Shown piece after piece: positions 1 to 57,855 of a stretch of DNA of 64,000 nt. The stretch comes from an uncultured beta proteobacterium. GTDB taxonomy: Bacteria > Pseudomonadota > Gammaproteobacteria > Burkholderiales > Casimicrobiaceae. The stretch spans positions 6,279-70,278 of the forward strand of contig CAVXVH010000009.1 in the NCBI GenBank assembly GCA_963765065.1, written 5' to 3'. The position numbers were made by a program, and so were the translations under genes. Numbering within the stretch: position 1 is the first letter of the stretch; each line of letters opens with the position of its first letter. The notes beneath the pieces are model-generated. The model was not told the origin of the DNA. It made no database searches and was given only the letters and a program-made list of their open reading frames with translations.

Positions 1-50
1 TGCTTTCGAAGATTCGCCTCGGCCTCTCCACGATCCCATTCGAAACGCGT
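1..50 (-). CDS. brnT: BrnT family toxin, 5' part only (runs off the window); start codon reads ACG instead of ATG
   Basis: Minus strand translates (T)RFEWDRGEAEANLRK; positions 1-85 align gaplessly to 2833-2917 with 9 mismatches. Confidence 0.7.
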
Positions 51-81
51 ACAGCGAATTCCTGGCGCCGAATACGGCGAG

Positions 82-172
82 GTCTGACGATCGCGCTAAG
101 CGGCGCCCCGCCGGGATGCTGGCAAAGAACGACCCCGCTTCTCGGCGCGGCCACTTGAGCGAGAGGTTAGCC
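82..172 (-). mobile_element. Integron attC-like recombination site
   Basis: Minus strand: GGCTAAC-5nt-GCTCAAGT...GCTTAGC-6nt-GTCAGAC, i.e. R''-L''...L'-R' layout; antitoxin stop codon lies within L'. Confidence 0.8.
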
Positions 173-461
173 CCCGCTCTTTTACCAACCGGATCTCCAC
201 CCGGTAGCCCAGTGCCTGTGCGTACCTCTGTAGCGTTGCCACGGACGGGGAGTGGCTGCTGGTCGGCGACTCAAGGCGGGCGATAGCGGACTGGGTCGTC
301 CCCGCCCGGGCGGCTACTTCCGCCTGGGTCAGGCCCGCCTCGGTGCGTGCCTTCAGCACTTCATCGAGGAAGGCGAACTCGCCGGCCAGCTCATCGTAGG
401 CCTTCTTTACTTCTGCCCGCGCCAATGCGCGGGCTTTGAATTGCTTAAGAGTGCTCGGCAT
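96..461 (-). CDS. XRE/HigA-like HTH antitoxin
   Basis: LTQAEVAARAGTTQSAIARLE HTH, PSVATLQRYAQALG; overlaps upstream toxin; C-terminal tail translated through attC. Confidence 0.85.
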   Translation of the reverse strand: MPSTLKQFKARALARAEVKKAYDELAGEFAFLDEVLKARTEAGLTQAEVAARAGTTQSAIARLESPTSSHSPSVATLQRYAQALGYRVEIRLVKERGLTSRSSGRAEKRGRSLPASRRGAA

Positions 462-780
462 CCTTGACTTCCTTCATCCTTCGGCGGGCGATCTCCGATT
501 CCTTCGGAGGGGTTTTCTGGGACTTCTTCACGAACTGGTGCAGCACCACGATCCGGTGTCCGCTAAGCGTGCAATAGAACACGCGGCCGATCCCCTCTGC
601 TGCCTTCAGGCGCAACTCGAACAATCCGCTCTTCATGGCCCGGGTGTGCGGCATGCCGAGGTCAGGACCGAAGACCTCCATTCGTTCAGCGTAGCGGATG
701 AACCTCGCGACGATCCCCGCCGGGAGCGCGAGAATTTCGTTCTCGATCGCTGAACTGTAGAACGTGACCCGCCAGCTCAT
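445..780 (-). CDS. RelE/ParE-superfamily toxin (Gp49/HigB-like)
   Basis: GPDLGMPHTRAM..GLFELRLK...RVFYC...IVVLHQFVKKSQKTP motif; toxin-first order with XRE antitoxin. Confidence 0.85.
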   Translation of the reverse strand: MSWRVTFYSSAIENEILALPAGIVARFIRYAERMEVFGPDLGMPHTRAMKSGLFELRLKAAEGIGRVFYCTLSGHRIVVLHQFVKKSQKTPPKESEIARRRMKEVKDAEHS

Positions 781-787
781 GACCGCA

Positions 788-807
788 GTATAGCATAACC
801 GCTATAC
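788..807. promoter_or_regulatory. Palindromic operator of the TA cassette
   Basis: GTATAGC-N6-GCTATAC perfect inverted repeat 8 bp upstream of the toxin ATG. Confidence 0.6.
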
Positions 808-826
808 CTGCCAAGCTGGACGCGGG

Positions 827-916
827 GTCTAACGCGGAAGGCGAGCGGCGCGCTACCGCGACTTCAGCAAAGCGGAAGCCATCAAACGGCGCGTCCGCTC
901 GACAGAGCTGTCAGGC
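827..916 (-). mobile_element. Integron attC-like recombination site
   Basis: Minus strand: GCCTGAC-5nt-TGTCGAGC-GGACGCG...CGCGCC-GCTCGCC-6nt-GTTAGAC; antitoxin TGA stop lies inside R'', as is typical for cassettes. Confidence 0.85.
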
Positions 917-1165
917 AGCTTCCTCATGCGACCACCCTGGAAAGACCAATACTCCTGGATGACACTTCAACGCTCGAGCAAGCACCTTCGCGCGCTCGAC
1001 GCCCAGGCGCACTCGGCCGTTCTCGATCGCGGAGATCGTGGCTTGAGGGATACCCGACATCTCGGACAGCTGGTTCTGGCTCATTTCCTGCAGCTCGCGA
1101 AGAATGCGGACCGACTCTCCAACGCTTACGGTCGCTCGCTTCTTGGCGCGGTGATAGTCCTTCAT
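911..1165 (-). CDS. XRE/HigA-like HTH antitoxin (84 aa)
   Basis: MKDY...MSQNQLSEMSGIPQATISAIENG HTH; TGATG coupling to toxin stop at 1165. Confidence 0.85.
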   Translation of the reverse strand: MKDYHRAKKRATVSVGESVRILRELQEMSQNQLSEMSGIPQATISAIENGRVRLGVERAKVLARALKCHPGVLVFPGWSHEEAA

Positions 1166-1446
1166 CAGGGCCTCCGATAGTCGTGGGCGGTGACTGACTC
1201 GACCTGGAACAGGCTCTCGTCCGCCACAACGCGATAGATGACGCGCCATTGGTCTCCCAAACGGGAAGAACGGTAGCCTTTCCACTCTCCAGCCAAAGCC
1301 TCGTCGCGAAAGCCCTTGATGAGCCGGAGCCCCTTTGGGCCGGACATCGAGGCGATGTCCTTCCACTTCTCGTAGCGCTTCAGAATTTCAAGAGGGGCGC
1401 CAGCGGCTTGCTTGTCCACACGCCGATGCTCCTCGATGCTCCACAT
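1165..1446 (-). CDS. RelE-superfamily mRNA interferase toxin (HigB/YoeB-like)
   Basis: GFRDEALAGEWKGYRSSRLGDQWRVIYRV motif. Confidence 0.85.
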   Translation of the reverse strand: MWSIEEHRRVDKQAAGAPLEILKRYEKWKDIASMSGPKGLRLIKGFRDEALAGEWKGYRSSRLGDQWRVIYRVVADESLFQVESVTAHDYRRP

Positions 1447-1451
1447 GGCAT

Positions 1452-1481
1452 ATTGTGTCTATGTCATATATGGTATGTCAA
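1452..1481 (-). promoter_or_regulatory. Sigma70-type promoter/operator of the TA cassette
   Basis: TTGACA at 1481-1476, CACAAT 18 bp downstream; TGACATA direct repeats at 1474-1480 and 1460-1466; AT-rich island. Confidence 0.55.
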
Positions 1482-1505
1482 GGCACAGTGCTCCCCTGAC
1501 TCTGC

Positions 1506-1637
1506 CTACCGCGATGCAGGCAACCGCCCCGCAATCTTCGCCACCAGCCGTCGTGCCAACGCGAGTTTCCCCACCCGTGGCAGCGGTTGTCCACCCGCAT
1601 CGTCGAGAATGCGGATGTCGATTTCGGGGGCCGCCAT
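1506..1637 (-). pseudogene. Diverged duplicate of the coaBC 3' end (43-codon ORF)
   Basis: PLPRVGKLALARRLVAKIAGRLPASR vs CoaBC PLPRMGKLALARRLVAEIAGRLPTSH; 1506-1586 vs 3065-3145 has 12 mismatches in 81 nt. Confidence 0.85.
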
Positions 1638-1644
1638 GGTTCGA

Positions 1645-1842
1645 TCAGGCCGCGACGCGCACGAAGTCGAATGTCGATAGGTCGGCACGCTGTGATGCGT
1701 GCTCGATCGTGATCGCGCAGATGCGCCCCGCGGCATCGACTTCCACGAGTGTGTCATCGTCGACATCGCGCGTCTCCACCGTTGGCGACGGCCGCAACTC
1801 GATCCAGAGTGTATCGGTGTCGGTGAAGTAGCGGATCTTCAT
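1645..1842 (-). CDS. DUF2283-family putative antitoxin (orphan)
   Basis: MKIRYFTDTDTLWIEL...VEVDAAGRICAITIEHAS pattern. Confidence 0.75.
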   Translation of the reverse strand: MKIRYFTDTDTLWIELRPSPTVETRDVDDDTLVEVDAAGRICAITIEHASQRADLSTFDFVRVAA

Positions 1843-1846
1843 GAAG

Positions 1847-2053
1847 CTACGCATTCACGGTTACTTGAAATGTCGTGACCAATGGCTGGCCAATCCGCGT
1901 CAACGGAAGCTCCTCGACATAGAGTTCGGTGGCTTCACGGAGATTGGCAAGCGCTCGCTCGACCGACTCGCCTTGGGGCGACGTGCCGGTCTCGGGATTC
2001 AGCGCCGTGTAACCACCCGACGGGGCGGGAATGAGTACGGCAGTGAGTAGCAT
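1847..2053 (-). CDS. hicB: HicB-family antitoxin (orphan, no hicA)
   Basis: GGYTALNPETGTSPQGESVERALANLREATELY motif. Confidence 0.8.
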   Translation of the reverse strand: MLLTAVLIPAPSGGYTALNPETGTSPQGESVERALANLREATELYVEELPLTRIGQPLVTTFQVTVNA

Positions 2054-2133
2054 GGTTACCCCACCCGTTGAGGCAACGTGAGACTCGTCGCGGGTTCTGG
2101 CATGACCTTCCGACATTTCATCGGCTTCTGACA

Positions 2134-2280
2134 TCAGGCCGCTCGCTTGGTGCGGCGAGAGCCGTGCCTGGCGACGTAGTCCCGCAACACGCCGTCCATA
2201 CGCGCCTGCCAGCCTTCGCCGGTGCTCCTGAAGTAGGCCATCGCGAGAACGCGTTTCGTCCTAAGCGTAGTTCTGGGCAT
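2134..2280 (-). pseudogene. BrnA-antitoxin C-terminal remnant
   Basis: AYFRSTGEGWQARMDGVLRDYV matches the BrnA C-terminal G-x-GWQ-x-R motif; N-terminus degenerate. Confidence 0.6.
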
Positions 2281-2350
2281 AGTGCTTGACCTCTCGGCGC
2301 TCGGCATCCGGATCGTCAAGTACAACCGCTGCAACGAGTTGCCTCGTGCT

Positions 2351-2418
2351 GACTATCGACTAGGCCGAGCGGCGCACGGCAGTCTTTGCAGTGCGTCCGC
2401 TCGAGCGTGTTGTTGGAC
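2351..2418 (-). mobile_element. attC-like site with degenerate R'
   Basis: Minus strand: GTCCAAC-5nt-GCTCGAGC-GGACGCAC...GTGCGCC-GCTCGGC-6nt-GATAGTC. Confidence 0.65.
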
Positions 2419-2623
2419 GTCGTGCCGACTGTCCGGCCTTGAGCACAAGCCGCAGGGCCTCGTTGACCGCCGCAGATGTCGGGAACGCCTTCGCTACGTC
2501 CGGCTCAAGAACGACAACGTTTGAACCGTCGTTCGTCAGCCGTTTCGCGTACTTGCCCCGAACGCCCTTGGAAAAGTCATACTCAGCACGCAGGTCACTG
2601 ACTACGGGAGTCTTTGCTTTCAT
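2360..2623 (-). CDS. Putative antitoxin partner of BrnT
   Basis: EYDFSKGVRGKY...VVLEPDVAKAFPTSAAVNEALR; overlaps the brnT 3' end; tail runs through attC. Confidence 0.75.
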   Translation of the reverse strand: MKAKTPVVSDLRAEYDFSKGVRGKYAKRLTNDGSNVVVLEPDVAKAFPTSAAVNEALRLVLKAGQSARRPTTRSSGRTAKTAVRRSA

Positions 2624-2882
2624 ATCGTTTGCGCTCAGCGGCGCTGGCAAGTCTTGCAGTCATGATCCGTAGAGTGTTGCCCCGTTCCGTATGCGCCACC
2701 ACTACGAGGCGCCCCATTGTCGAGACGCCCATCGTGACAAAGCGACGCTCCGCGATGGAGTGGTCCGGGTCCGGGATCGTGACCGACAGTGTGTCGAAGA
2801 AGACAGTCGCCGCCTCGTCGAACGAGACACGATGCATTCGAAGATTCGCCTCGGCCTTCCCACGATCCCATTCGAAACGCAT
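2595..2882 (-). CDS. brnT: BrnT family toxin
   Basis: MRFEWDRGKAEANLRMHRVSFDEAATVF...DPDHS..ERRF..MG...R..TARLA..ERKRYE. Confidence 0.9.
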   Translation of the reverse strand: MRFEWDRGKAEANLRMHRVSFDEAATVFFDTLSVTIPDPDHSIAERRFVTMGVSTMGRLVVVAHTERGNTLRIMTARLASAAERKRYESKDSRSQ

Positions 2883-2959
2883 ACATCGAAACCCTTGCGC
2901 GGAATACGGCGAGGTCTATTGAGTCTCGTTTAAGTCGTTGAGAGCGGCAACGCACCGTC

Positions 2960-3033
2960 GTCGCTCGCGCGAAGGCGGGAGTCCAGTGTCGTTTGCTCGG
3001 GAGTCACTGGGTCCCCGCTTGCGCGGGGACGAC
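2960..3033. repeat. dRS3/REP-like palindrome doublet
   Basis: GCGCGAAGGCGGGAGTCCAG...CTGGGTCCCCGCTTGCGCGGGGACGAC; same family at 6 other loci. Confidence 0.8.
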
Positions 3034-3064
3034 GGGAGGATGTCAGGCACTTGCACGAGCCTCG

Positions 3065-4268
3065 TTAATGCGATGTAGGCAGCCGCCCCGCAATCTCCGC
3101 CACCAGCCGCCGCGCCAGCGCGAGCTTCCCCATCCGCGGCAGCGGGTGCGCACCATGCGCATCGATCAGCGTCACCTCGTTGTCGTCCGCGCCGAGCGCG
3201 TCCTGCGCGCGGTTGGCCACGATCAGCGGCAGCTTCTTGCGCTTGCGCTTGTCCTCGGCGTGCGCGACGACGTCGTGGCTCTCGGCGGCAAAGCCGACGC
3301 AATAGGGAGGCTTCGGCAGCGCGGCGACGGTGGCGAGGATGTCGACCGTCGGCTCGAGCGCGATCGACAGCGGCGCGCCGCTCTTCTTGATCTTCCTCTC
3401 GGACACCTTCGCCGGCGTGTAGTCGGCCACCGCCGCGACGGCGACGAACATGTCGGGAATCGTCACGCGCGCGAGCACCGCATCGGCCATCTCGCGGGCG
3501 CTCTTCACATCGACACGCGTCGTGCCCGCGGGAGTCGCAAGCGACGATGGGCCCGCGACCAGCGTCACCGCAGCGCCAGCCTCTGCGGCAGCCTGCGCGA
3601 CCGCAAAGCCCATCTTTCCCGAGCTGGAGTTGGTGATGCCGCGCACCGGATCGATCGGCTCGAACGTCGGTCCCGCGGTGACCAGCACGCGCTTGCCGGC
3701 GAGCAGCTTCGGCTGCCGCGCCGCGACAAGCGCGGCGAAGATCTCCTCGGGCTCGAGCATGCGCCCGTCACCGGTCTCGTTGCAGGCGAGTTCGCCGCTG
3801 CCGGGGCCGAGGATCGCGACGCCGTCGGCGCGAAGCTGCGCGACGTTGCGTTGCGTGGCGCGGGTTGCGCCACATCTCGACGTTCATCGCCGGCGCGACG
3901 AGCAGCGGGCAGTCGCGCGCGAGGCAGAGCGTGGAGAGAAGGTCGTCGGCGTGGCCGTGCGCGAGCTTGGCGAGGAAGTCCGCCGACGCAGGCGCGACGA
4001 CGATCGCGGCGGCACCGCGCGAGACGCCGATGTGGCCCATCGCGTTGTCGGCGCCGGTGGCCCACAGGTCCGTGAGCACGGCGCGACCGGACAGCGCCTG
4101 GAACGTGGTGGCGGTGACGAAGTGCTGTGCCGCGGCAGTCATCACCACGTCGACGTCGGCGCCGTCCTTGACCAGGAGGCGCGTCAACTCGGCGGTCTTG
4201 TACGCGGCGATGCCGCCGGTGACGCCGAGGACGTAGCGCGGACGTGGGGCGGTCGGGACGTCGTTCAT
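3065..4268 (-). CDS. coaBC: Bifunctional PPC decarboxylase/synthetase CoaBC (+1 frameshift near 3860, probable sequencing error)
   Basis: GVTGGIAAYK, APAMNVEMW, VTAGPTFEPIDPVRGITNSSSGKMG, VGFAAES motifs; the two ORFs join if one base is removed. Confidence 0.93.
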
Positions 4269-4390
4269 CGTGATCGTCCATGCGGCCGAGCGAGGCCGGG
4301 GATCGAGCGAGTTTACACTGGGCCGCATCGACTTTCCCTCGCACGACGACCTGCGTCGCCAGGGCGCGGCCGAGCGGCAGTTGTCACCGA

Positions 4391-5077
4391 ATGCGCACCA
4401 GCGAACCCGTGTCGACACGCGAAGCAACGTACGCGGAACGGCCGCACCGGCGGCTCGCGGCGCTCGGTCCCGCGGCCCTCACCGATGCCGAATTGCTGGC
4501 GGTCGTACTGGGCTCCGGCCCGCGCGGCGTATCCGCTCTGGAGGCCGCGCGATCCGCGCTGGACGGCCACGGTGGGCTGGCGGGGCTCGTGCTCGGGCCC
4601 AAGCCTTCCGGACCGCACGGGTTGGGGCCGGTCAGGCGCGCGCGGCTGCGCGCCAGCGTCGAGCTCGCACTGCGCGCCGCACGAGACGCGCTTGCGCGGG
4701 GCAGCGCGCTCACGTCACCCGAGGCCGTGCGCGACTACTTGCGCCTCGCTCTCGCGGCGCGCGAGAGCGAGGCGTTCGTGGGGCTGTTCCTCGACAGCCA
4801 GCATCGGCTGCTCGTCGCCGACGAGCTGTTCCGCGGCACGCTCGCGCAGACCAGCGTCTACCCGCGCGAGGTCGTCAAGGCCGCGTTGGCCTGCAACGCG
4901 GCGGCGGTGATCTTCGCCCACAACCACCCCTCGGGTGTCGCCGAGCCCTCGCGCGCCGACGAGCTCCTCACTGCATCGCTCAAGTCCGCCTTGGCGCTGA
5001 TCGACGTGCGCGTACTTGACCACTTCGTCGTGGCCGGGCCACAGGTCGTGTCCTTCGCCGAACGGGGATTGCTCTAG
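4391..5077 (+). CDS. radC: RadC/JAB-domain protein (start uncertain)
   Basis: ERP..RL...GPAALTDAELLA; VYPREVVKAAL; HNHPSGVAEPSRAD JAB motif. Confidence 0.93.
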   Translation: MRTSEPVSTREATYAERPHRRLAALGPAALTDAELLAVVLGSGPRGVSALEAARSALDGHGGLAGLVLGPKPSGPHGLGPVRRARLRASVELALRAARDALARGSALTSPEAVRDYLRLALAARESEAFVGLFLDSQHRLLVADELFRGTLAQTSVYPREVVKAALACNAAAVIFAHNHPSGVAEPSRADELLTASLKSALALIDVRVLDHFVVAGPQVVSFAERGLL

Positions 5078-5173
5078 CGAACTCCATCCGGCCGCCGAAT
5101 TGTTGCTTTGGATCAACGGCTTGCGGCGAGAGCAACGCCTGAGCGCGGGCATGCCGGCGGATCGCCCCGGCAA

Positions 5174-5202
5174 TTGCCCGGGTCGCGGAAAGCCGCTATA
5201 AT
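5174..5202 (+). promoter_or_regulatory. Sigma70 promoter of rpmB-rpmG
   Basis: TTGCCC-17bp-TATAAT. Confidence 0.6.
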
Positions 5203-5244
5203 TCAACGCTTTTCCGCAACAATCCCTATTCACAGGAGCGAGCC

Positions 5245-5481
5245 ATGGCTCGAGTCTGCCCGATCACCGGCAAGCGCCCCATCGTGGGCAATCGCGTTTC
5301 GCACGCGAACAACAAGACCAAGCGGCGCTTCATGCCGAACCTCCAGAACCGCCGCTTCTGGGTCGAGAGCGAGAACCGCTGGATTTCGCTGCGCCTCACC
5401 AACGCGGCGCTGCGCACGATCGACAAGAACGGCATCGACGCCGTGCTCGCCGACCTGCGCGCGCAGGGTCAGCACCTCTGA
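5245..5481 (+). CDS. rpmB: 50S ribosomal protein L28
   Basis: [32 protein letters not shown]. Confidence 0.97.
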
Positions 5482-5506
5482 CACGCACTGACGGAGCAAC
5501 CAACCC

Positions 5507-5662
5507 ATGCGCGAAAAGATCAAGCTCGAGTCGTCGGCCGGCACCGGCCACTTCTACACGACGAACAAGAACAAGAAGACCACGCCGGACAAGCTGGTGA
5601 TGAAGAAGTACGACCCGGTGGCCCGCAAGCACGTCGATTACAAGGAAACCAAGCTCAAGTAG
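5507..5662 (+). CDS. rpmG: 50S ribosomal protein L33 (51 aa, not in ORF track)
   Basis: Manual translation [24 protein letters not shown]...[18 protein letters not shown]. Confidence 0.97.
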
Positions 5663-5703
5663 CCTGCGTTTCCTGCGGGGCTTCGCCTCGCGACGACGTC
5701 AAG

Positions 5704-5734
5704 CAAAAGGCCCGCCGGTGCGCGGGCCTTTTTG
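5704..5734. terminator. Intrinsic (bidirectional) terminator
   Basis: CAAAAGGCCCGC-loop-GCGGGCCTTTTTG. Confidence 0.8.
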
Positions 5735-5747
5735 TCGTCTGGAGAAC

Positions 5748-5955
5748 GGAACGACGTTGGGTTCCCGCTTTCGCGGGAACGACGAGGGTGCGGTCGCTGG
5801 AACGACGAGGGTGCGGTCGCTGGAACGACGCTGGGTTCCCACTTTCGCGGGAACGACGAGGGTGCGGTCGCTGGAACGACGCTGGATCCCCGCTTTCGCG
5901 GGGATGACGGCGAATTGGTTCGTCGTCGTTCCCGCGAAAGCGGGAACCCAGCGTC
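5748..5955. repeat. Tandem cluster of dRS3/REP-like palindromes (about 51-bp units)
   Basis: Repeated GTTCCCGCTTTCGCGGGAAC-GACGAGGGTGCGGTCGCTGGAACGAC plus a terminal inverted copy. Confidence 0.85.
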
Positions 5956-5963
5956 TCAGGCCG

Positions 5964-7175
5964 TCACGCGTAGCGCTTCAGCTGGAACGAGAAGCGCGCA
6001 AGCGCCTCGATGCCCGAGCCCTCGGCACGCCGGCACCAGTCCTGCAGACGGACCAGCAACTGCTCGGACGACTCGGTCGAGCGCGACCACAGTCCGGAGA
6101 GCTCCTCGCGCATCGCATAGACCTTGGCGAGCGGCGAGCTCGCGGCGAGCATCGCGGACAGGCGTGCACGCTCGGGCGCAGGAAGCGCCGCGGGTTCCGT
6201 GGCGAGCCAGCGGCGCAGTCGCGACACGCTGGGAATCTCGACGGGCTTGATCTCGCCGCGTTGCGCCCGCTCGCGCAGCTTGGCGAGCTCCGCACCCAGC
6301 AGCGCCTTCAGCTCGCGCCCGTAGCTCGTCGCCACCTCGTAGCGATGGGTGATCACCGCGTGCAGCGTGCCGAGGTCGGGGGTGGGCTTCGCGTTCGCCA
6401 GCTGGAGCTTCGGCGCGACCTTGCGTACCGTCGCGAGACGCAGCAAGGCGAGGATGCGGATGTACGCCCAGCCGAGGTCGAATTCCCACCAGCGCGACGA
6501 GAACTTGGCCGACGTTCCGTACGCGTGATGGTTGTTGTGCAGCTCCTCGCCGCCGACCAGGATGCCCCACGGGACGAGGTTGGTCGACGTGTCGGCCGAG
6601 GCGAAGTTGCGGTAGCCCCAGTAGTGACCGATGCCGTTGATCACGCCGGCGGCCCAGATCGGGATCCACATCATCTGCACCGCCCAGATCGTCATGCCGA
6701 GCGGGCCGAACAGCACGAGATTGACGGCGAGCATCAGCCCGACGCCCTGCCACGAAAAGCGCGTGTAGACGTTGCGCTCGAGCCAGTCGTCGGGCGTGCC
6801 GCGCCCGTACTTCTCAAGCGTCTCGAGGTTCTTCGATTCCGCCCGGTAGAGCTCCGCGCCCTGCCACATCACCTTGCTGATGCCGCGCGTCTGCGGGCTG
6901 TGCGGGTCGTCCTCGGTCTCGACCTTGGCGTGGTGCTTGCGGTGGATCGCCACCCACTCCTTGGTGACCATGCCGGTCGTGAGCCACAGCCAGAAGCGGA
7001 AGAAGTGGGAGACGACCGGGTGCAGGTCGAGCGCGCGGTGTGCCTGGGCGCGGTGCAGGAAGATCGTGACCGAGGCGATGGTGACGTGAGTGAGGGCGAG
7101 CGCCACCACGACGTAGCCCCACCAGGGCAAGTCGATCAGGCCGTGCGACAGCAGTGCAATCGGATCGTAACTCAT
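5964..7175 (-). CDS. desA: Acyl-CoA/fatty acid desaturase
   Basis: His boxes HRAQAH, HRKHH, ELHNNHH. Confidence 0.9.
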   Translation of the reverse strand: MSYDPIALLSHGLIDLPWWGYVVVALALTHVTIASVTIFLHRAQAHRALDLHPVVSHFFRFWLWLTTGMVTKEWVAIHRKHHAKVETEDDPHSPQTRGISKVMWQGAELYRAESKNLETLEKYGRGTPDDWLERNVYTRFSWQGVGLMLAVNLVLFGPLGMTIWAVQMMWIPIWAAGVINGIGHYWGYRNFASADTSTNLVPWGILVGGEELHNNHHAYGTSAKFSSRWWEFDLGWAYIRILALLRLATVRKVAPKLQLANAKPTPDLGTLHAVITHRYEVATSYGRELKALLGAELAKLRERAQRGEIKPVEIPSVSRLRRWLATEPAALPAPERARLSAMLAASSPLAKVYAMREELSGLWSRSTESSEQLLVRLQDWCRRAEGSGIEALARFSFQLKRYA

Positions 7176-7281
7176 TGATTTGTTGAAACTCTCCAGCAGA
7201 TGAGCGGCGGGGTCGCACGCGTTTGGGCAGCGGCCGGTGCCGCATTGTACGCGAGGGGTACCCCCGGCCGGGTGATGTGGA

Positions 7282-8562
7282 TCAGACTGCTGCCGGGCGG
7301 GAATCGGCAGGCATGCCCACGATCCGCACCTCGCGCTGCGGGAACGGCACGCCGATGCCGTGCTGCTGGAACGCCTTCCACAGGGCGAGGTTGAGGTCGC
7401 TCCGCAGGTTGAGCTGGCCGTTCTCGGGGTCGCGGATCCACACGCCGAGTTCGAGGTCGATGCCGCTCTCGGCGAAGCGCAGCACGAACGCCGCAGGCGC
7501 CCGGCCGTCGGCGGTCTCGACCCGGGGGTTGGCGCGAGCGACCTCGATCAGCAGCGCCAGCGCCCGCTCGAGGTCGGTGCCGTAGGCGACCTGGATCTGG
7601 ATCGCGACCCGTGCGTCCCGCGCCGACAGCGAGTGGTTGAGCACCGTGGTCGTGACCATCGTCTCGTTGGGCACGATCGCCTCGACGCTGTCGAGGCTGC
7701 GCACGACCACGTAGCGCGACGTGACCTTGGTGACGGCCCCGTAACGGTCGCCGACGGTGACGAGGTCGCCCAGCCGGATCGAGCGGTCGAGCAGGATCAC
7801 GAAGCCGGCGATGTAGTTCGACGCGAGCTTCTGCAGGCCGAGGCCGATGCCCACGCCGAGTGCCCCGCCGAACACCGACAGCACGGTGAGGTCGAGGCCG
7901 ATCGACTGCAGTGCGGTCAGCACGCCGATGATGACCAGCACGGCCTTGATGAATTTCGACGCCAGCGCCTTGTGCGACAGGTCGAGGTCGGTCTTCATGA
8001 GCCGCGACTCGATCAGTCCCGCGAACCACAGCGTGGCGGCGATGGTGAACAGCACGGCGACGATGCCCTTGAGCAGCGCGAGCAGCGTGAACCTGGAGGC
8101 GCCGAGCGGCAGCGTGACCGAGTCCAGCTCCTCTGCGAGCTGTGGCGTCACGCCGAGTACGTGCAGGGCGACCAGCGCCCACACGACGAGGCTCACCGTG
8201 CGCTCGGACGACTTCAGCCACTGCGCGTTGGGGACCAGGCGCCGCAGCATGTAGACGAGGATGCGGATCGCGGCGAGCGCCAGCGCCAGCACGACCCCGG
8301 CATCGAAGAACAGCGGCGCACCGTGGGTGCGCCAAATCGCGCGCCCGAAGTAGAGCAGCAGCAGCGCGACCACCGGCATCACGATGCGGAACGCGCCCTT
8401 GGCAAGCCCCGAGGGCACGACGCCTTCGCGCCGGCGGGCGACGATCGCCCGGTCGACCGCCCAGCCGGCGGCGAAGCACAGGAGCACGAGGGCGAGCTCG
8501 ACCCATCCGGACGGGGTCGACAGCGCTTTTTCGACGCGTTCGAAGCTGATCGGGGCGAGCAC
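7282..8562 (-). CDS. MscS-family mechanosensitive channel
   Basis: GALGVGIGLGLQKLASNYIAG, IRLGDLV, IVPNETM, FAESGIDLEL. Confidence 0.9.
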   Translation of the reverse strand: MLAPISFERVEKALSTPSGWVELALVLLCFAAGWAVDRAIVARRREGVVPSGLAKGAFRIVMPVVALLLLYFGRAIWRTHGAPLFFDAGVVLALALAAIRILVYMLRRLVPNAQWLKSSERTVSLVVWALVALHVLGVTPQLAEELDSVTLPLGASRFTLLALLKGIVAVLFTIAATLWFAGLIESRLMKTDLDLSHKALASKFIKAVLVIIGVLTALQSIGLDLTVLSVFGGALGVGIGLGLQKLASNYIAGFVILLDRSIRLGDLVTVGDRYGAVTKVTSRYVVVRSLDSVEAIVPNETMVTTTVLNHSLSARDARVAIQIQVAYGTDLERALALLIEVARANPRVETADGRAPAAFVLRFAESGIDLELGVWIRDPENGQLNLRSDLNLALWKAFQQHGIGVPFPQREVRIVGMPADSRPAAV

Positions 8563-8606: not shown

Positions 8607-8825
8607 TTGTCGTCGTTCCCGCGCAATGCGGCCACGGTTGTCGTCGTTCCCGCGCAAGCGGGAACCCAGTGTCGTTCGGTCGCAAGCCACTGGGTTCCCG
8701 CTTGCGCGGGAACGACGAGGTTGCGGAGAGTTCCCGCTTGCGCGGGAACGACGAGGTTGCGGAGAGTTCCCGCTTGCGCGGGAACGACGAAGCTGCGGAC
8801 AGTTCCCGCTTGCGCGGGAACGACG
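8607..8825. repeat. dRS3/REP-like cluster with four palindromes at 36-bp period
   Basis: GTTCCCGCTTGCGCGGGAAC at 8694, 8730, 8766, 8802 with near-identical 16-bp spacers. Confidence 0.9.
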
Positions 8826-10106: not shown

Positions 10107-11335
10107 TGCGTTGCCGTCGTGCCAGGTTCGTCGATGTGGATCGCGTCGAGCAGGGCGATCAGCGTGCCGCGGGTGGCGTGCTCGGTGCGGATCTTCACCG
10201 GGATGTAGTTGAGCGCCGGCGCCAGCCAGACGTAGGACTCGGTCTTGCCGTCCTCGCTCGTGCGGTGCCAGACCTCGGCCTCGACCGGGCCGTGCGTCCA
10301 CTCGATCGTCTCGGTGCGCACGCGCGTCACGGTGACGCGATTGACGCGCCGCGTCGTCGCGATGGCGAAGCTGTGGCTTTCGGCCGTCGGCGGCTTGAAG
10401 TAGAACTGCCAGATCAGCGTCAGCGGATCGAACGTCGGCAGTTCGATCGGCTCGGTCTTGCCTTCGTGCAGCGTCGCGATGCCGATCTCCCAGTCGAACG
10501 TCGCGCGCTCGGTACCGCGCTTGTTGAACTTGTCGACGACTAGTTCGAGCGGCTGCAGGCCCTCGCCGTTGATGACGCCGCGGCTCTCCACCCGTCCCTG
10601 GCCACGCACGAACAGCGCCGCGAGACCGTGCGCCTCGGCGATCGTGAATACGCGGTAGGTTCCGGCCGCGTGCTCGAAGCGGTAGGTCGCGCTGCCGACG
10701 TGGAAGGCCTGCGTGCCGAAGAACACCTTGTAGGCGAGGTCGACGCGCGGCGGCAGGGTCTTCGCCGGGATGGCCGGCGCCTCCGGCGCGGCGACCTCCT
10801 CCGCGAGCACCGGCGCCGGCGCGGGTTCTACCGTCGGCGCGGACTCGCCGTCGGCAGTAGGTACCCCACTCGCGACGGTTTCGCCTTCCCAGGCAGGTTG
10901 CGCGACTTCGGGTTCGGCGGGCGCTTCGATCGGCGCCGGGGCGCTCGGCGGCACGCTGCGCGGCGGCCGGGGTCGTGCCTTCGGTGGCGGCGGTCGTGGG
11001 GCGGCGGACGCAGCAACGGGGGGCGGCGGCAGCTCCTTGACGGACACCGTGAGCGGCGTGGTGTCGCGTGTCGCGGGGAGAGACTGCGGCGCGAGGCTCA
11101 CTGCCGCGTGGACCGCGACCGACAACACGAGCGCGATCAGCAGTCCGCGTCGCGCACGCCACCAGGGCGGCTGGCCGTCGCGCGGGCGCTCGGGGGAGTT
11201 CTTCGTCGTCCCCGCGAACGCGGGGACCCAGCGTCGTACGGCGGCAAGACACTGGGTTCCCGCTTGCGCGGGAACGACGACGGTCGCGTCCCGCGGTGCG
11301 AGAACGACCTCGTCGTGGTGTCTAGGGTTACGCAT
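10103..11335 (-). CDS. DUF3108-like exported protein with Pro-rich linker and an in-frame palindromic repeat near the N-terminus
   Basis: TM segment LLIALVLSVAVHAAV, P/A-rich linker, C-terminal DUF3108-like domain (VWLAPALNYIPVKIR); starts overlap neighbours. Confidence 0.75.
   Translation of the reverse strand: MRNPRHHDEVVLAPRDATVVVPAQAGTQCLAAVRRWVPAFAGTTKNSPERPRDGQPPWWRARRGLLIALVLSVAVHAAVSLAPQSLPATRDTTPLTVSVKELPPPPVAASAAPRPPPPKARPRPPRSVPPSAPAPIEAPAEPEVAQPAWEGETVASGVPTADGESAPTVEPAPAPVLAEEVAAPEAPAIPAKTLPPRVDLAYKVFFGTQAFHVGSATYRFEHAAGTYRVFTIAEAHGLAALFVRGQGRVESRGVINGEGLQPLELVVDKFNKRGTERATFDWEIGIATLHEGKTEPIELPTFDPLTLIWQFYFKPPTAESHSFAIATTRRVNRVTVTRVRTETIEWTHGPVEAEVWHRTSEDGKTESYVWLAPALNYIPVKIRTEHATRGTLIALLDAIHIDEPGTTATQ
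11205..11278. repeat. dRS3/REP-like palindrome doublet inside a CDS
   Basis: GTCGTCCCCGCGAACGCGGGGACCCAG...CTGGGTTCCCGCTTGCGCGGGAACGAC. Confidence 0.85.
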
Positions 11336-16524: not shown

Positions 16525-17663
16525 GGAAGGAGCGCGTGATCGTCGGCATGTCCGGCGGCGTCGACTCGTCGGTCGCGGCGTGGCTGCTGAAGGAGCAGGG
16601 CTACGACGTGGTCGGCGTGTTCATGAAGAACTGGGAGGACGACGACACCGAGGCGTACTGCACGTCGCGCGAGGACTTGGTCGACGCTGCCAGCGTCGCC
16701 GACGTGATCGGCATCGACCTCGAGGCGGTCAACTTCGCGGCGCAATACCGCGAGCGCGTGTTCGCCCATTTCCTGCGCGAGTACCAGGCGGGGCGCACGC
16801 CGAATCCCGACGTGCTGTGCAACAGCGAGATCAAGTTCGCGGCGTTCCTCGAGCACGCGCGCACGCTCGGCGCCGACCGGATCGCCACCGGCCACTACGC
16901 GCGGGTGCGACGCCCCGCGGGGGAAGGCGCGTCGGTCGAATTGCTGAAGGCCGTCGACGCGACCAAGGACCAGAGCTATTTCCTGCATCGCCTCACGCAG
17001 GCGCAGTTGGCACCGGTGCTGTTCCCCCTGGGCGACACGCCCAAGCGCGAGGTGCGCGCGATCGCGAAGCGGGTCGGCATCCCGACGTGGGCGAAGAAGG
17101 ACTCGACCGGCATCTGCTTCATCGGCGAGCGGCCGTTCCGGGACTTCCTCGCGCGCTACCTGCCGCGCGAGCCGGGGCCGATCGTCACGGCGGAGGGGCG
17201 CGAGGTGGGCCGCCACACGGGGCTCGCCTACTACACGCTGGGACAGCGCCAGGGCCTCGGCATCGGCGGCACGCGCGGCGCGGGCGATGCGCCGTGGTTC
17301 GTCGCCGGCAAGGACCGCTCGCGCAATGCGCTGATCGTCGTGCAGGGGCACGATCACCCGCGGCTCTACCGCGATACGGTCGCCGCGCAGGAGGCGCACT
17401 GGATCGCGGGCGCAGCGCCGTCGATGCCCGTGCGGCTCGGCGCGAAGACGCGCTATCGCATGGCGGATGCCGCGTGCACCGTGCACACGTCCGTGGACAC
17501 GACCGATGGATTCATTCGCGCAACGTTCGACGCGCCGCAGTGGGCGCCGACACCCGGCCAATACCTGGTGCTCTACGACGGCGACACGTGTCTCGGCGGG
17601 GGCGTGATCGTCGAGCCATCGGGGGCAGCCAACCCCGCGATCGCGGACTGCGCGACCGGTTGA
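16521..17663 (+). CDS. mnmA: tRNA 2-thiouridylase
   Basis: [48 protein letters not shown]. Confidence 0.96.
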
Positions 17664-17734
17664 GGCCAGCGGGGCGCGCCCAAACGATGCAGCGCGCGCC
17701 GCGTCGCCCCCGCGCACGATGCCAACAACACGAC

Positions 17735-17945
17735 GTCATCCCCGCGCAAACGGGGATCCAGTGACTTGTGCCCTTTCGGGTCGAATGGATGTGCCGCTGG
17801 GTTCCCGCTTTCGCGGGAACGACGACGCACTTCGGTTCGCGGGACCACTAGAACGGAATGTCGTCGTCGAAGCGACGGCGGCCATCGCCGCCATCGTCCC
17901 CGCCCCCCGCTTTCGCGGGGGCAGGGTCGCGGGGATCCAGCGTCT
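17735..17945. repeat. dRS3/REP-like palindromes between convergent mnmA and ssb
   Basis: Doublet 17735-17823 plus nested half-element about 17895-17945. Confidence 0.8.
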
Positions 17946-17978
17946 TGCGACGGCTAGAACGGAATGTCGTCGTCGAAG
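17848..17978 (-). repeat. 25-bp direct repeat of the ssb 3' end (FDDDIPF-stop)
   Basis: CTAGAACGGAATGTCGTCGTCGAAG at 17848-17872 and 17954-17978. Confidence 0.95.
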
Positions 17979-18466
17979 TCGTCGGTGTTCTTCTTGCTGG
18001 GGGCGCCGCCGCTGCGGCTCGCGCCGGACCCGCCTCCGCCAGCGCCGCCACCTGCAGCGCCGCCGGAGCGCCGGCCGCCGCCTGCGTCGCCGCCGCCGAA
18101 CTCGGCATCACCGCCGCCGCCGCCTCCGGCGTCGCGCGCGCTGCCGATCAGCTGCATGCGATCGGCGACGATCTCGGTCGAGTACTTCTCGACGCCTTCC
18201 TTGTCGGTGTACTTGCGCGTCTGCAGTCGGCCCTCGATGTAGACCGAGCGGCCCTTCTTCAGGTACTCGCCGGCGATCTCGGCCTGGCGTCCGAACAGCA
18301 CGACGGTGTGCCACTCGGTGCGCTCCTGCTTCTCGCCGCTCTTGTCCTTCCACTGCTCGGAAGTCGCGATGCGCAGGTTGGTGACCGCATCGCCGCCGGT
18401 CGTGTAGCGGGTCTCGGGGTCGCGGCCCAGGTTGCCGAGCAGAATCACTTTGTTGACCGAGGCCAT
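17954..18466 (-). CDS. ssb: Single-stranded DNA-binding protein
   Basis: [18 protein letters not shown]...ERTEWH...DDDIPF. Confidence 0.97.
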
Positions 18467-57782: not shown

Positions 57783-57855
57783 GTCACTCCCGCGAAAGCG
57801 GGAGCCCAGCGTCTGTCGCGCAACGACGCTGGATCCCCGCTTTCGCGGGGATGAC
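57783..57855. repeat. dRS3/REP-like palindrome doublet
   Basis: GTCACTCCCGCGAAAGCGGGAGCCCAG...CTGGATCCCCGCTTTCGCGGGGATGAC. Confidence 0.85.

Follow-up and report, generated by a model that had tools for sequence, protein, structure and literature searches.

Positions 1-2920 of the 64,000-nt DNA stretch analysed here (contig CAVXVH010000009.1 of assembly GCA_963765065.1; hereafter the window) are very probably part of a CALIN (attC sites grouped together without an integron integrase) that is composed of type II toxin-antitoxin (TA) modules only and that, in a Casimicrobiaceae-like betaproteobacterium, is lodged between coaBC and dut. Position 1 falls within the array, whose genes all lie on the minus strand, codirectional with coaBC (4270 to 3065). 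The host is a soil or freshwater betaproteobacterium, and the nearest relatives of its coaBC are found in Casimicrobiaceae-like betaproteobacterial metagenome-assembled genomes (MAGs; 72-79% amino acid identity). CALINs are a known kind of element, and CALINs dominated by TA modules have already been published. Particular to this locus are its site within the coaBC-dut pair, the restriction to TA modules across many strain variants and the stacking of arrays by way of coaBC remnants.

The array is defined by three attC sites, attC1 (82-172), attC2 (827-916) and attC3 (2351-2418). An earlier sequence-only reading of this DNA had placed three attC-like sites at these coordinates on one strand, and both covariance models used in this work recovered them there, with matches on the minus strand only. 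The first model, R1, was trained on sites of the contigs L206 (most of them), L151 and L077. L206 is a metagenomic integron contig found by scanning metagenomes with an L-box core pattern, a scan that returned mostly chance matches in GC-rich coding DNA (about 6 of 120 were attC-like). It carries at 213-7300 a complete integron with an integron integrase gene (TIGR02249; 324 bits, the cut-off being 265), an attI with GTTAGGC at its end and 11 cassettes with attC sites, ten of which are near-identical 60-nt sites and one a different site of 88 nt. Of attC sites lying at annotated ends of cassettes, R1 found ten; nine of these belong to plasmid-borne class 1 integrons of Pseudomonas, Citrobacter and E. 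coli, the tenth to an integron of Kovacikia. In the window it matched attC2 with 39.7 bits (E 1e-8), attC3 with 35.9 bits (E 1e-7) and attC1 with 21.4 bits (E 2e-3); class 1 sites score 22.7-74 bits under this model, a range in which the window sites lie. There was no further R1 match below E 0.7 on either strand of the 64 kb. The second model, R2, was made from the ten cassette-end sites (class 1 and Kovacikia) and one weaker Kovacikia match (E 0.16). It returned the same three sites, with 41.5 bits (E 2e-7) for attC2, 39.9 bits (E 5e-7) for attC3 and 24.8 bits (E 2e-3) for attC1, the next best match in the window having an E-value of 0.84. An ungapped alignment of hand-cut attC sites misplaced sites with spacers of 5-6 nt and was not turned into a model.

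In the alignments every part expected of an attC is present in the window sites: the R'' box of 7 nt, a spacer of 6 nt, the L'' arm and its two bulged positions, a variable loop, the L' arm, a spacer and the R' box. All three belong to attC by their covariance model matches; none of them retains the complementary AAC/GTT triplets, each having one mutated triplet. In attC1 (R'' GGCTAAC, R' GTCAGAC) GTT has become GTC and the extrahelical A a C, and comparison with intact copies elsewhere (GTCTAAC to GGCTAAC, GGACGC to GGCCGC, GTTAG to GTCAG) marks it as a decayed copy. In attC2 (R'' GCCTGAC, R' GTTAGAC) AAC has become GAC, and in attC3 (R'' GTCCAAC, R' GATAGTC) GTT has become GAT; the L-box stem of attC3, with one bulged base, has a folding z-score of -2.8 to -2.9. 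Intact versions of attC1 occur in the sister contigs L213-L218 and of attC2 in L226, L230 and L231 (GCCTAAC and GTTAGCC). By their sequence, the window sites are attC sites by descent and are probably impaired. The attC core motif recurs neither elsewhere in the window nor in related loci totalling 1.3 Mb and is thus not a genome-wide repeat. A reading of the sites on the plus strand, with intI on the left, was rejected: it is the 5' arm of the minus strand that carries the bulged bases, and the models match that strand only.

As had been noticed from the sequence, antitoxin stop codons fall inside the attC sites, at 911-913 (R'' box of attC2), 96-98 (L' arm of attC1) and 2360-2362 (attC3). 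The attC sites encode the last 25 or so residues of the HigA-like antitoxin (96-172) and about 20 residues of the BrnT partner (2360-2418), and the peptide RSSGR present in both tails is the translated conserved L'' core.

At least one unit, the HigBA cassette, is mobile. Six other contigs (L213-L218) carry a HigB relative (P0004) that is 95% identical to the window protein, each time together with its HigA. Their gene surroundings differ, with ABC substrate-binding genes, unknown ORFs and a ParE-like pair among them; elsewhere the cassette is placed among non-TA cassettes. Window and contigs are 94% identical at the nucleotide level from 835/833 to 81/92, a stretch that begins precisely at G|TTAGAC of attC2 and finishes where attC1 ends; on either side of it the sequences part at G|TT. 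In the six contigs each copy is flanked by attC sites of 45-51 bits (45.6-51.4 bits for the cassette's own attC, compared with 24.8 bits for attC1 of the window). HigBA with attC1 is a discrete unit present in several arrays and a real mobile cassette bounded by G|TT crossover points. Exact boundaries of this kind in six arrays are, as far as sequence can tell, a signature of integrase-mediated cassette movement.

Domains of the array ORFs were assigned with Pfam and NCBIfam, and PDB and lenient Pfam searches were added for ORFs left unassigned. Nearest to coaBC is cassette C3-A (2357-2919), which contains a BrnT toxin (2595-2882; Pfam, 87.9 bits), an 87-aa ORF overlapping it (2360-2623) and attC3. 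The 87-aa ORF has no family match and was not identified by the PDB and lenient Pfam searches; it is the BrnA partner by position only. Next follows module C4-A (1645-2356), composed of a BrnA fragment (2134-2280) that matches the C-terminal third of the profile only, a HicB-like ORF (1847-2053) and an orphan DUF2283 gene (1645-1854; Pfam); this module has no attC of its own and no match with R1 or R2. Cassette C1 (833-1509) starts in a GGTAGGC box that holds the stop codon of a coaBC remnant and carries, just inside its start, a promoter-like site (1481-1452), then a RelE/StbE-family toxin (1165-1446; TIGR02385, 29.2 bits against a cut-off of 27.9), an XRE-HTH antitoxin (911-1165; Pfam HTH_3) and attC2. 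Cassette C2 (88-832) is the HigBA cassette, again with a promoter-like site just inside it (814-787), a Gp49/HigB toxin (445-780; 97.6 bits), a HigA-like XRE-HTH antitoxin (96-461; Pfam HTH_3) and attC1. Just after the G of the attC1 R' box begins cassette C3-B (1-87), which is cut by the window start and of which only BrnT codons 1-16 (1-50, start codon at 50) are present. Positions 1-85 are 89% identical to 2833-2917, as expected for the second BrnT proposed earlier, and in sister contigs this copy continues with the rest of BrnT, its partner and an attC3-type site. The identity between the two BrnT cassettes starts at AGACCTCGCC, at most 3 nt from the predicted crossover.

The HigB/HigA, RelE/XRE and BrnT modules are predicted type II TA systems, being adjacent or overlapping small genes with family matches, and each assignable ORF of the array is TA-related. 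The claim that every recognisable ORF was a toxin, an antitoxin or a coaBC fragment is upheld for the RelE and HigB pairs with their XRE antitoxins, for BrnT and DUF2283 and for the orphan BrnA. It does not hold with the same certainty for the HicB-like ORF, which we take to resemble the HicB N-terminal domain and which has a weak DUF7387 match only and no match in NCBIfam or PDB. No protein with exactly the sequence of the BrnT or of the RelE of the window is on record.

By definition, a CALIN has two or more attC sites in a cluster, with gaps of under 4 kb, and lacks an intI in its vicinity (Cury et al. 2016, PMC4889954). The three sites of the window are spaced 655 and 1435 nt apart, and tblastn with the L206 integrase gave no IntI-like gene in the 64 kb (E>2). 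This agrees with the earlier description of the locus as CALIN-like and without an integrase at its head.

The place of the array was defined by comparison with related genomes. In most of 80 such genomes the distance from the coaBC match to the dut start is no more than about 70 nt, and all ten insert-free junctions that were read have the two genes abutting or overlapping. In sister contigs, which were chosen as carrying exactly the HigB or the XRE protein of the window, a TA array fills this gap (L001, L228 and L229). The order in L001 is coaBC, a truncated RelE-XRE, attC2, HigBA, attC1, BrnTA, attC3, the HicB-like ORF, DUF2283 and dut. L228 is 98-100% identical to the window through coaBC, spacer, BrnTA, attC3, C4, the joint described below, RelE-XRE and attC2; what follows GTTAG in the R' box of attC2 is an orphan HTH antitoxin, then a homologue of BrnA, a Phd/ParE pair and the start of dut. 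In L226, L230 and L231 a DUF4258-like ORF (22.4 bits, under Pfam's 25-bit cut-off) and DUF2283 precede the same type of joint and RelE-XRE. L229 has an additional RelE(PF06296)-HTH pair behind a third coaBC remnant: at 2320-2530 a C-terminal remnant of BrnT is fused to the last 22 or so codons of coaBC, followed by GTTAGCC and this pair. A single cassette with half an attC (attC2) is present in L225, and L001 and L227 share a 150-nt deletion in RelE. In ten sister arrays all modules are of the TA type.

At the attC2 crossover, sister strains have arrays that differ from each other by entire modules. The switch between the window and L228 falls inside the R' box of attC2 and is preceded by 820 nt at 100% identity, and such a break at the crossover point suggests, from sequence comparison, that cassette exchange has been recent in the population. 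The comparison of the region downstream of coaBC, which the sequence-only reading had proposed for detecting cassette turnover, does show such differences. Its further proposal that cassettes are acquired in trans has indirect support, from HigBA recurring in six arrays with exact G|TT boundaries and from a different module in L228; that the integrase acts in trans we infer. The heptamer GCCTGAC found before the dut start was considered as a remnant of an R'' box and rejected, as it is more likely the native coaBC stop and dut start (CTGACCGAACC ATG), conserved in all sister contigs.

An unlikely account, though one with several observations in its favour, is that the array is purely a fossil, which an integron built long ago, in which no site-specific exchange takes place now and whose strain differences come from homologous and illegitimate recombination only. 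The mutated AAC or GTT triplet in each attC of the window would fit with this, as would the low score of attC1 relative to the intact cassette elsewhere and the number of illegitimate junctions, which include the dut'::coaBC' joint, the BrnT'::coaBC' fusion of L229, the 150-nt RelE deletion and the half attC2 of L225. Also the L228 module behind attC2 opens inside a truncated RelE gene and not at a clean cassette start. Against a pure fossil stand the position of the switch between the window and L228 within the R' box after a long stretch of complete identity, the exact G|TT boundaries of HigBA in six other arrays and the intact attC2 of L226, L230 and L231.

The ORF at 1506-1637, described in the earlier reading as a coaBC fragment, turned out to be a dut'::coaBC' hybrid, with 12 codons of dut joined in frame to 31 of coaBC. 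The N-terminal codons of dut, identified from L001 and L228, occupy 1637-1602 (MAAPEIDIRILD), the last 31 codons of coaBC 1601-1509 and the stop codon 1508-1506; positions 1511-1595 are 86% identical to 3070-3154 in coaBC. The hybrid ORF is the joint by which array A (2919-1645) is stacked on array B (1509-1 and beyond). Duplication of a segment running from the 3' end of coaBC through the array to the 5' end of dut would be expected to leave such a joint, and the same joint could result from homology-facilitated illegitimate recombination with DNA of a strain carrying another array.

That the two-array layout is an assembly chimera of two co-occurring strains is very improbable. The window start does lie in repeated BrnT sequence, the assembly contains single-base indels typical of long reads, and strains with differing arrays occur across different samples and assemblies. 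However, the independent contig L228 has the order coaBC, REP (see below), BrnTA, joint, RelE and XRE, with the joint 100% identical, the diverged L226, L230 and L231 share the joint at 86-88% identity, and an error-free 151-nt contig from the independent run X5 spans it (1528-1678), so that the joint is not an artefact of the window assembly; only 1-826, to the left of attC2, is without such independent support in this backbone. Read depth at the junctions in the runs X1-X4 was 1-3x only.

It is more improbable still that the window shows the edge of an ordinary complete integron with intI and attI just beyond it. The left flank is indeed unseen, as the window opens inside the array. Yet the minus-strand attC sites with their extrahelical bases put the 5' head of the array, and with it the side of intI and attI, at coaBC, where no IntI-like ORF is found over 61 kb; what is present at the head in place of intI, attI and the cassette promoter Pc is coaBC and a spacer with repetitive extragenic palindromic (REP) sequences. 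The other side of the array ends at dut in sister contigs, and in L225, which was taken from a 549-kb contig and has the order radC, coaBC, cassette, dut and HipBA, no integrase was found within 5 kb on either side of the locus.

The spacer of 147 nt between the coaBC stop and C3-A holds a REP-type inverted repeat pair (2956-3033). The REP arm motif has ten matches in the window at no more than 3 mismatches, where none is expected, several of them as inverted pairs, and REP sequences reach a depth of about 200-300x in metagenome runs. The pair at 2956-3033, a repeated short imperfect palindrome in inverted orientation, therefore belongs to the REP/BIME (bacterial interspersed mosaic element) class. 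Further copies of the REP sequence (CTGGGTCCCCGCTTGCGCGGGGACGAC) were found at 5882-5951, 8643-8716, 11205-11278, 17735-17823 and 57829-57855, mostly as inverted intergenic pairs. The array head does lie at coaBC, next to a palindrome, as had been described; the palindrome itself is nothing special to the array, being one of the genome-wide REP pairs. A reading of 2918-3064 as a long attC or an attI was rejected on the basis of this REP pair and of the lack of any R1 or R2 match. That the whole is a TA island without any integron link, whose intergenic hairpins are terminators or REP sequences resembling attC by chance, is hardly credible, since, in spite of the abundant REP hairpins, one of which adjoins the array, and of the unexceptional folding of the whole attC1 site (z-score 0.06 to 0.6), models made from real integrons, applied to 128 kb of strand, match nothing but these three sites, the consensus is followed by the boxes, by the spacers and at the two bulged positions, the core motif is absent from the rest of the window and from the 1.3 Mb of related loci and cassette boundaries fall exactly at G|TT, by which this explanation is already contradicted.

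A number of points weigh against the description of the locus as an integrase-built TA CALIN. The sites used to train R2 had been chosen by R1, even if they lie at annotated cassette ends, and the E-values of the models are rough. The left part of the array, beyond the window start, is seen solely in sister contigs. Module C4 is without an attC, and several joints are illegitimate and not site-specific (dut'::coaBC', and BrnT'::coaBC' in L229). Each of the three attC sites has a mismatch in a conserved triplet, which counts against present activity of the window copy. No integrase was seen in the 64-kb window or within up to 5 kb around the L225 locus. Finally, neither the HicB-like ORF nor the BrnT partner matches any family significantly, and the TA activities of the modules are predicted.

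The coaBC gene at the array head (3065-4270) is full length with one additional base near 3858, because of which it is read as two ORFs (3065-3760 and 3768-4427). The extra base, at 3855-3860, gives CCGCGCC where relatives have CCGGCC. In L225 one base is likewise inserted, but at another place some 70 nt distant, and the gene is intact in the short-read contigs L226, L227 and L230. The frame shift is probably a long-read indel error and does not denote a pseudogene.

Other Casimicrobiaceae-like genomes carry small inserts without attC in the gap between coaBC and dut (L007, 10750-11278; L008, 10771-11458; L009-L011), which are an opposite-strand DUF4160/DUF2442 pair, a MazE/PIN(VapC) pair interrupted by a stop in frame and a gene for a TPR-methyltransferase. 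The coaBC-dut gap has the look of a hot spot for insertions in general. In another Burkholderiales MAG (L023, 10672-10849) the spacer between the two genes consists largely of tandem GCCTCTA-type heptamer repeats. L225 contains at 6171-8063 dut, a HipB/HipA pair and a second partial dUTPase ORF, so that the downstream side of dut also appears duplicated around a TA module. In the Burkholderiales MAG L077 there is a cluster of two attC sites (17291-18443) about 7 kb downstream of coaBC, with 62.7 and 35.6 bits under R1, the stronger being one of R1's own training sequences; the ORFs of its cassettes (177 and 126 aa) resemble, judged by eye on sequence, small hydrophobic membrane proteins.

The junctions between coaBC and the cassettes bear on the possible origin of the array. 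The 3' end of coaBC is CATCGCGTTAGGC, and coaBC or its remnants, where they precede a cassette, end in CATCGCG|(T/G)TAGG(C/A) or CATCGCG|TTAGCC, with the TAG stop codon inside a GTTRRRY-like box. Two different first cassettes, RelE-XRE and the RelE(PF06296)-HTH pair of L229, join coaBC at the same nucleotide. An integron integrase may have inserted cassettes at the GTTAGGC box, from which coaBC now takes its stop codon and which would have served as a secondary or pseudo-attI site, and later exchange at the attC sites would have been carried out by an integron integrase supplied in trans. TA cassettes with promoters of their own could occupy the coaBC-dut gap without shutting off dut and would penalise their own loss, and the two properties together would explain why TA modules alone persist. 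Two versions of the locus would then have been stacked by segmental duplication or homology-facilitated illegitimate recombination, giving array A, joint and array B. With a mutated AAC/GTT triplet in each attC, the window copy would be decaying; it is probably close to fixed, and may be drifting towards a fixed TA island.

A bolder version of this origin, which we consider doubtful, is that in this lineage the last codons of coaBC (CATCGCG|TTAGGC) are a dedicated pseudo-attI, to which a remotely encoded integrase would repeatedly deliver promoter-bearing TA cassettes at the coaBC-dut junction, and that dut expression would then come to rely, by read-through, on TA promoters, the array being thereby locked in position. 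If true, an essential operon would have been turned into an integrase-less cassette platform.

With the CALINs described in PMC4889954, for which the origins proposed include secondary-site insertion and loss of intI, the locus shares three co-oriented attC sites within 2.4 kb, the lack of a nearby intI and cassettes mostly outside the resistance gene catalogues. Unlike CALINs in general, it has TA cassettes only, splits the coaBC-dut pair and consists of two arrays stacked via the dut'::coaBC' joint. Another related system is the CALIN of Halorhodospira halochloris (PMC7923331), which is rich in type II TA systems and has three BrnT/A pairs. Both are integrase-less attC clusters with mostly TA ORFs, repeated BrnT/BrnA and promoters upstream of the TA operons, but the H. 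halochloris element has group IIB introns and an adjacent IS200/605 insertion sequence (IS) and is not reported in a housekeeping operon, while the present array is free of introns and IS and has coaBC on one side and dut on the other. In sedentary chromosomal integrons, such as those of Vibrio, TA cassettes have promoters of their own and are thought to prevent array loss and to penalise excision (PMC13108822, PMC11023631). The promoter-like sites inside the RelE and HigB cassettes resemble this situation (PMC13108822); Vibrio arrays, in distinction to the present one, have a resident IntI, attI and Pc and tens to hundreds of mostly non-TA cassettes; the present locus lacks an integrase and has no non-TA cassettes left that would need protection. 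The junction of the first cassette with coaBC at CGCG|TTAGGC, of the GTT type, is like secondary-site insertion outside attI (cited in PMC4889954). The repeated use of one site and a host stop codon contributed by the R' box of a cassette, both of which we infer here, go beyond it.

For annotation, the dut'::coaBC' ORF and the antitoxin tails encoded by attC are a warning, as they are by-products of recombination and not new genes. The sister arrays (the window, L228, L226, L230, L231, L227, L229 and L225) form a series in which in-trans integrase activity, the origin of CALINs and the filtering of array survivors for TA modules may be followed. The locus itself offers a well-documented natural example of integron cassettes settling outside an integron, where a GTT-type site in a housekeeping operon would receive them, self-stabilising TA cassettes alone would persist and attC sites would then decay.

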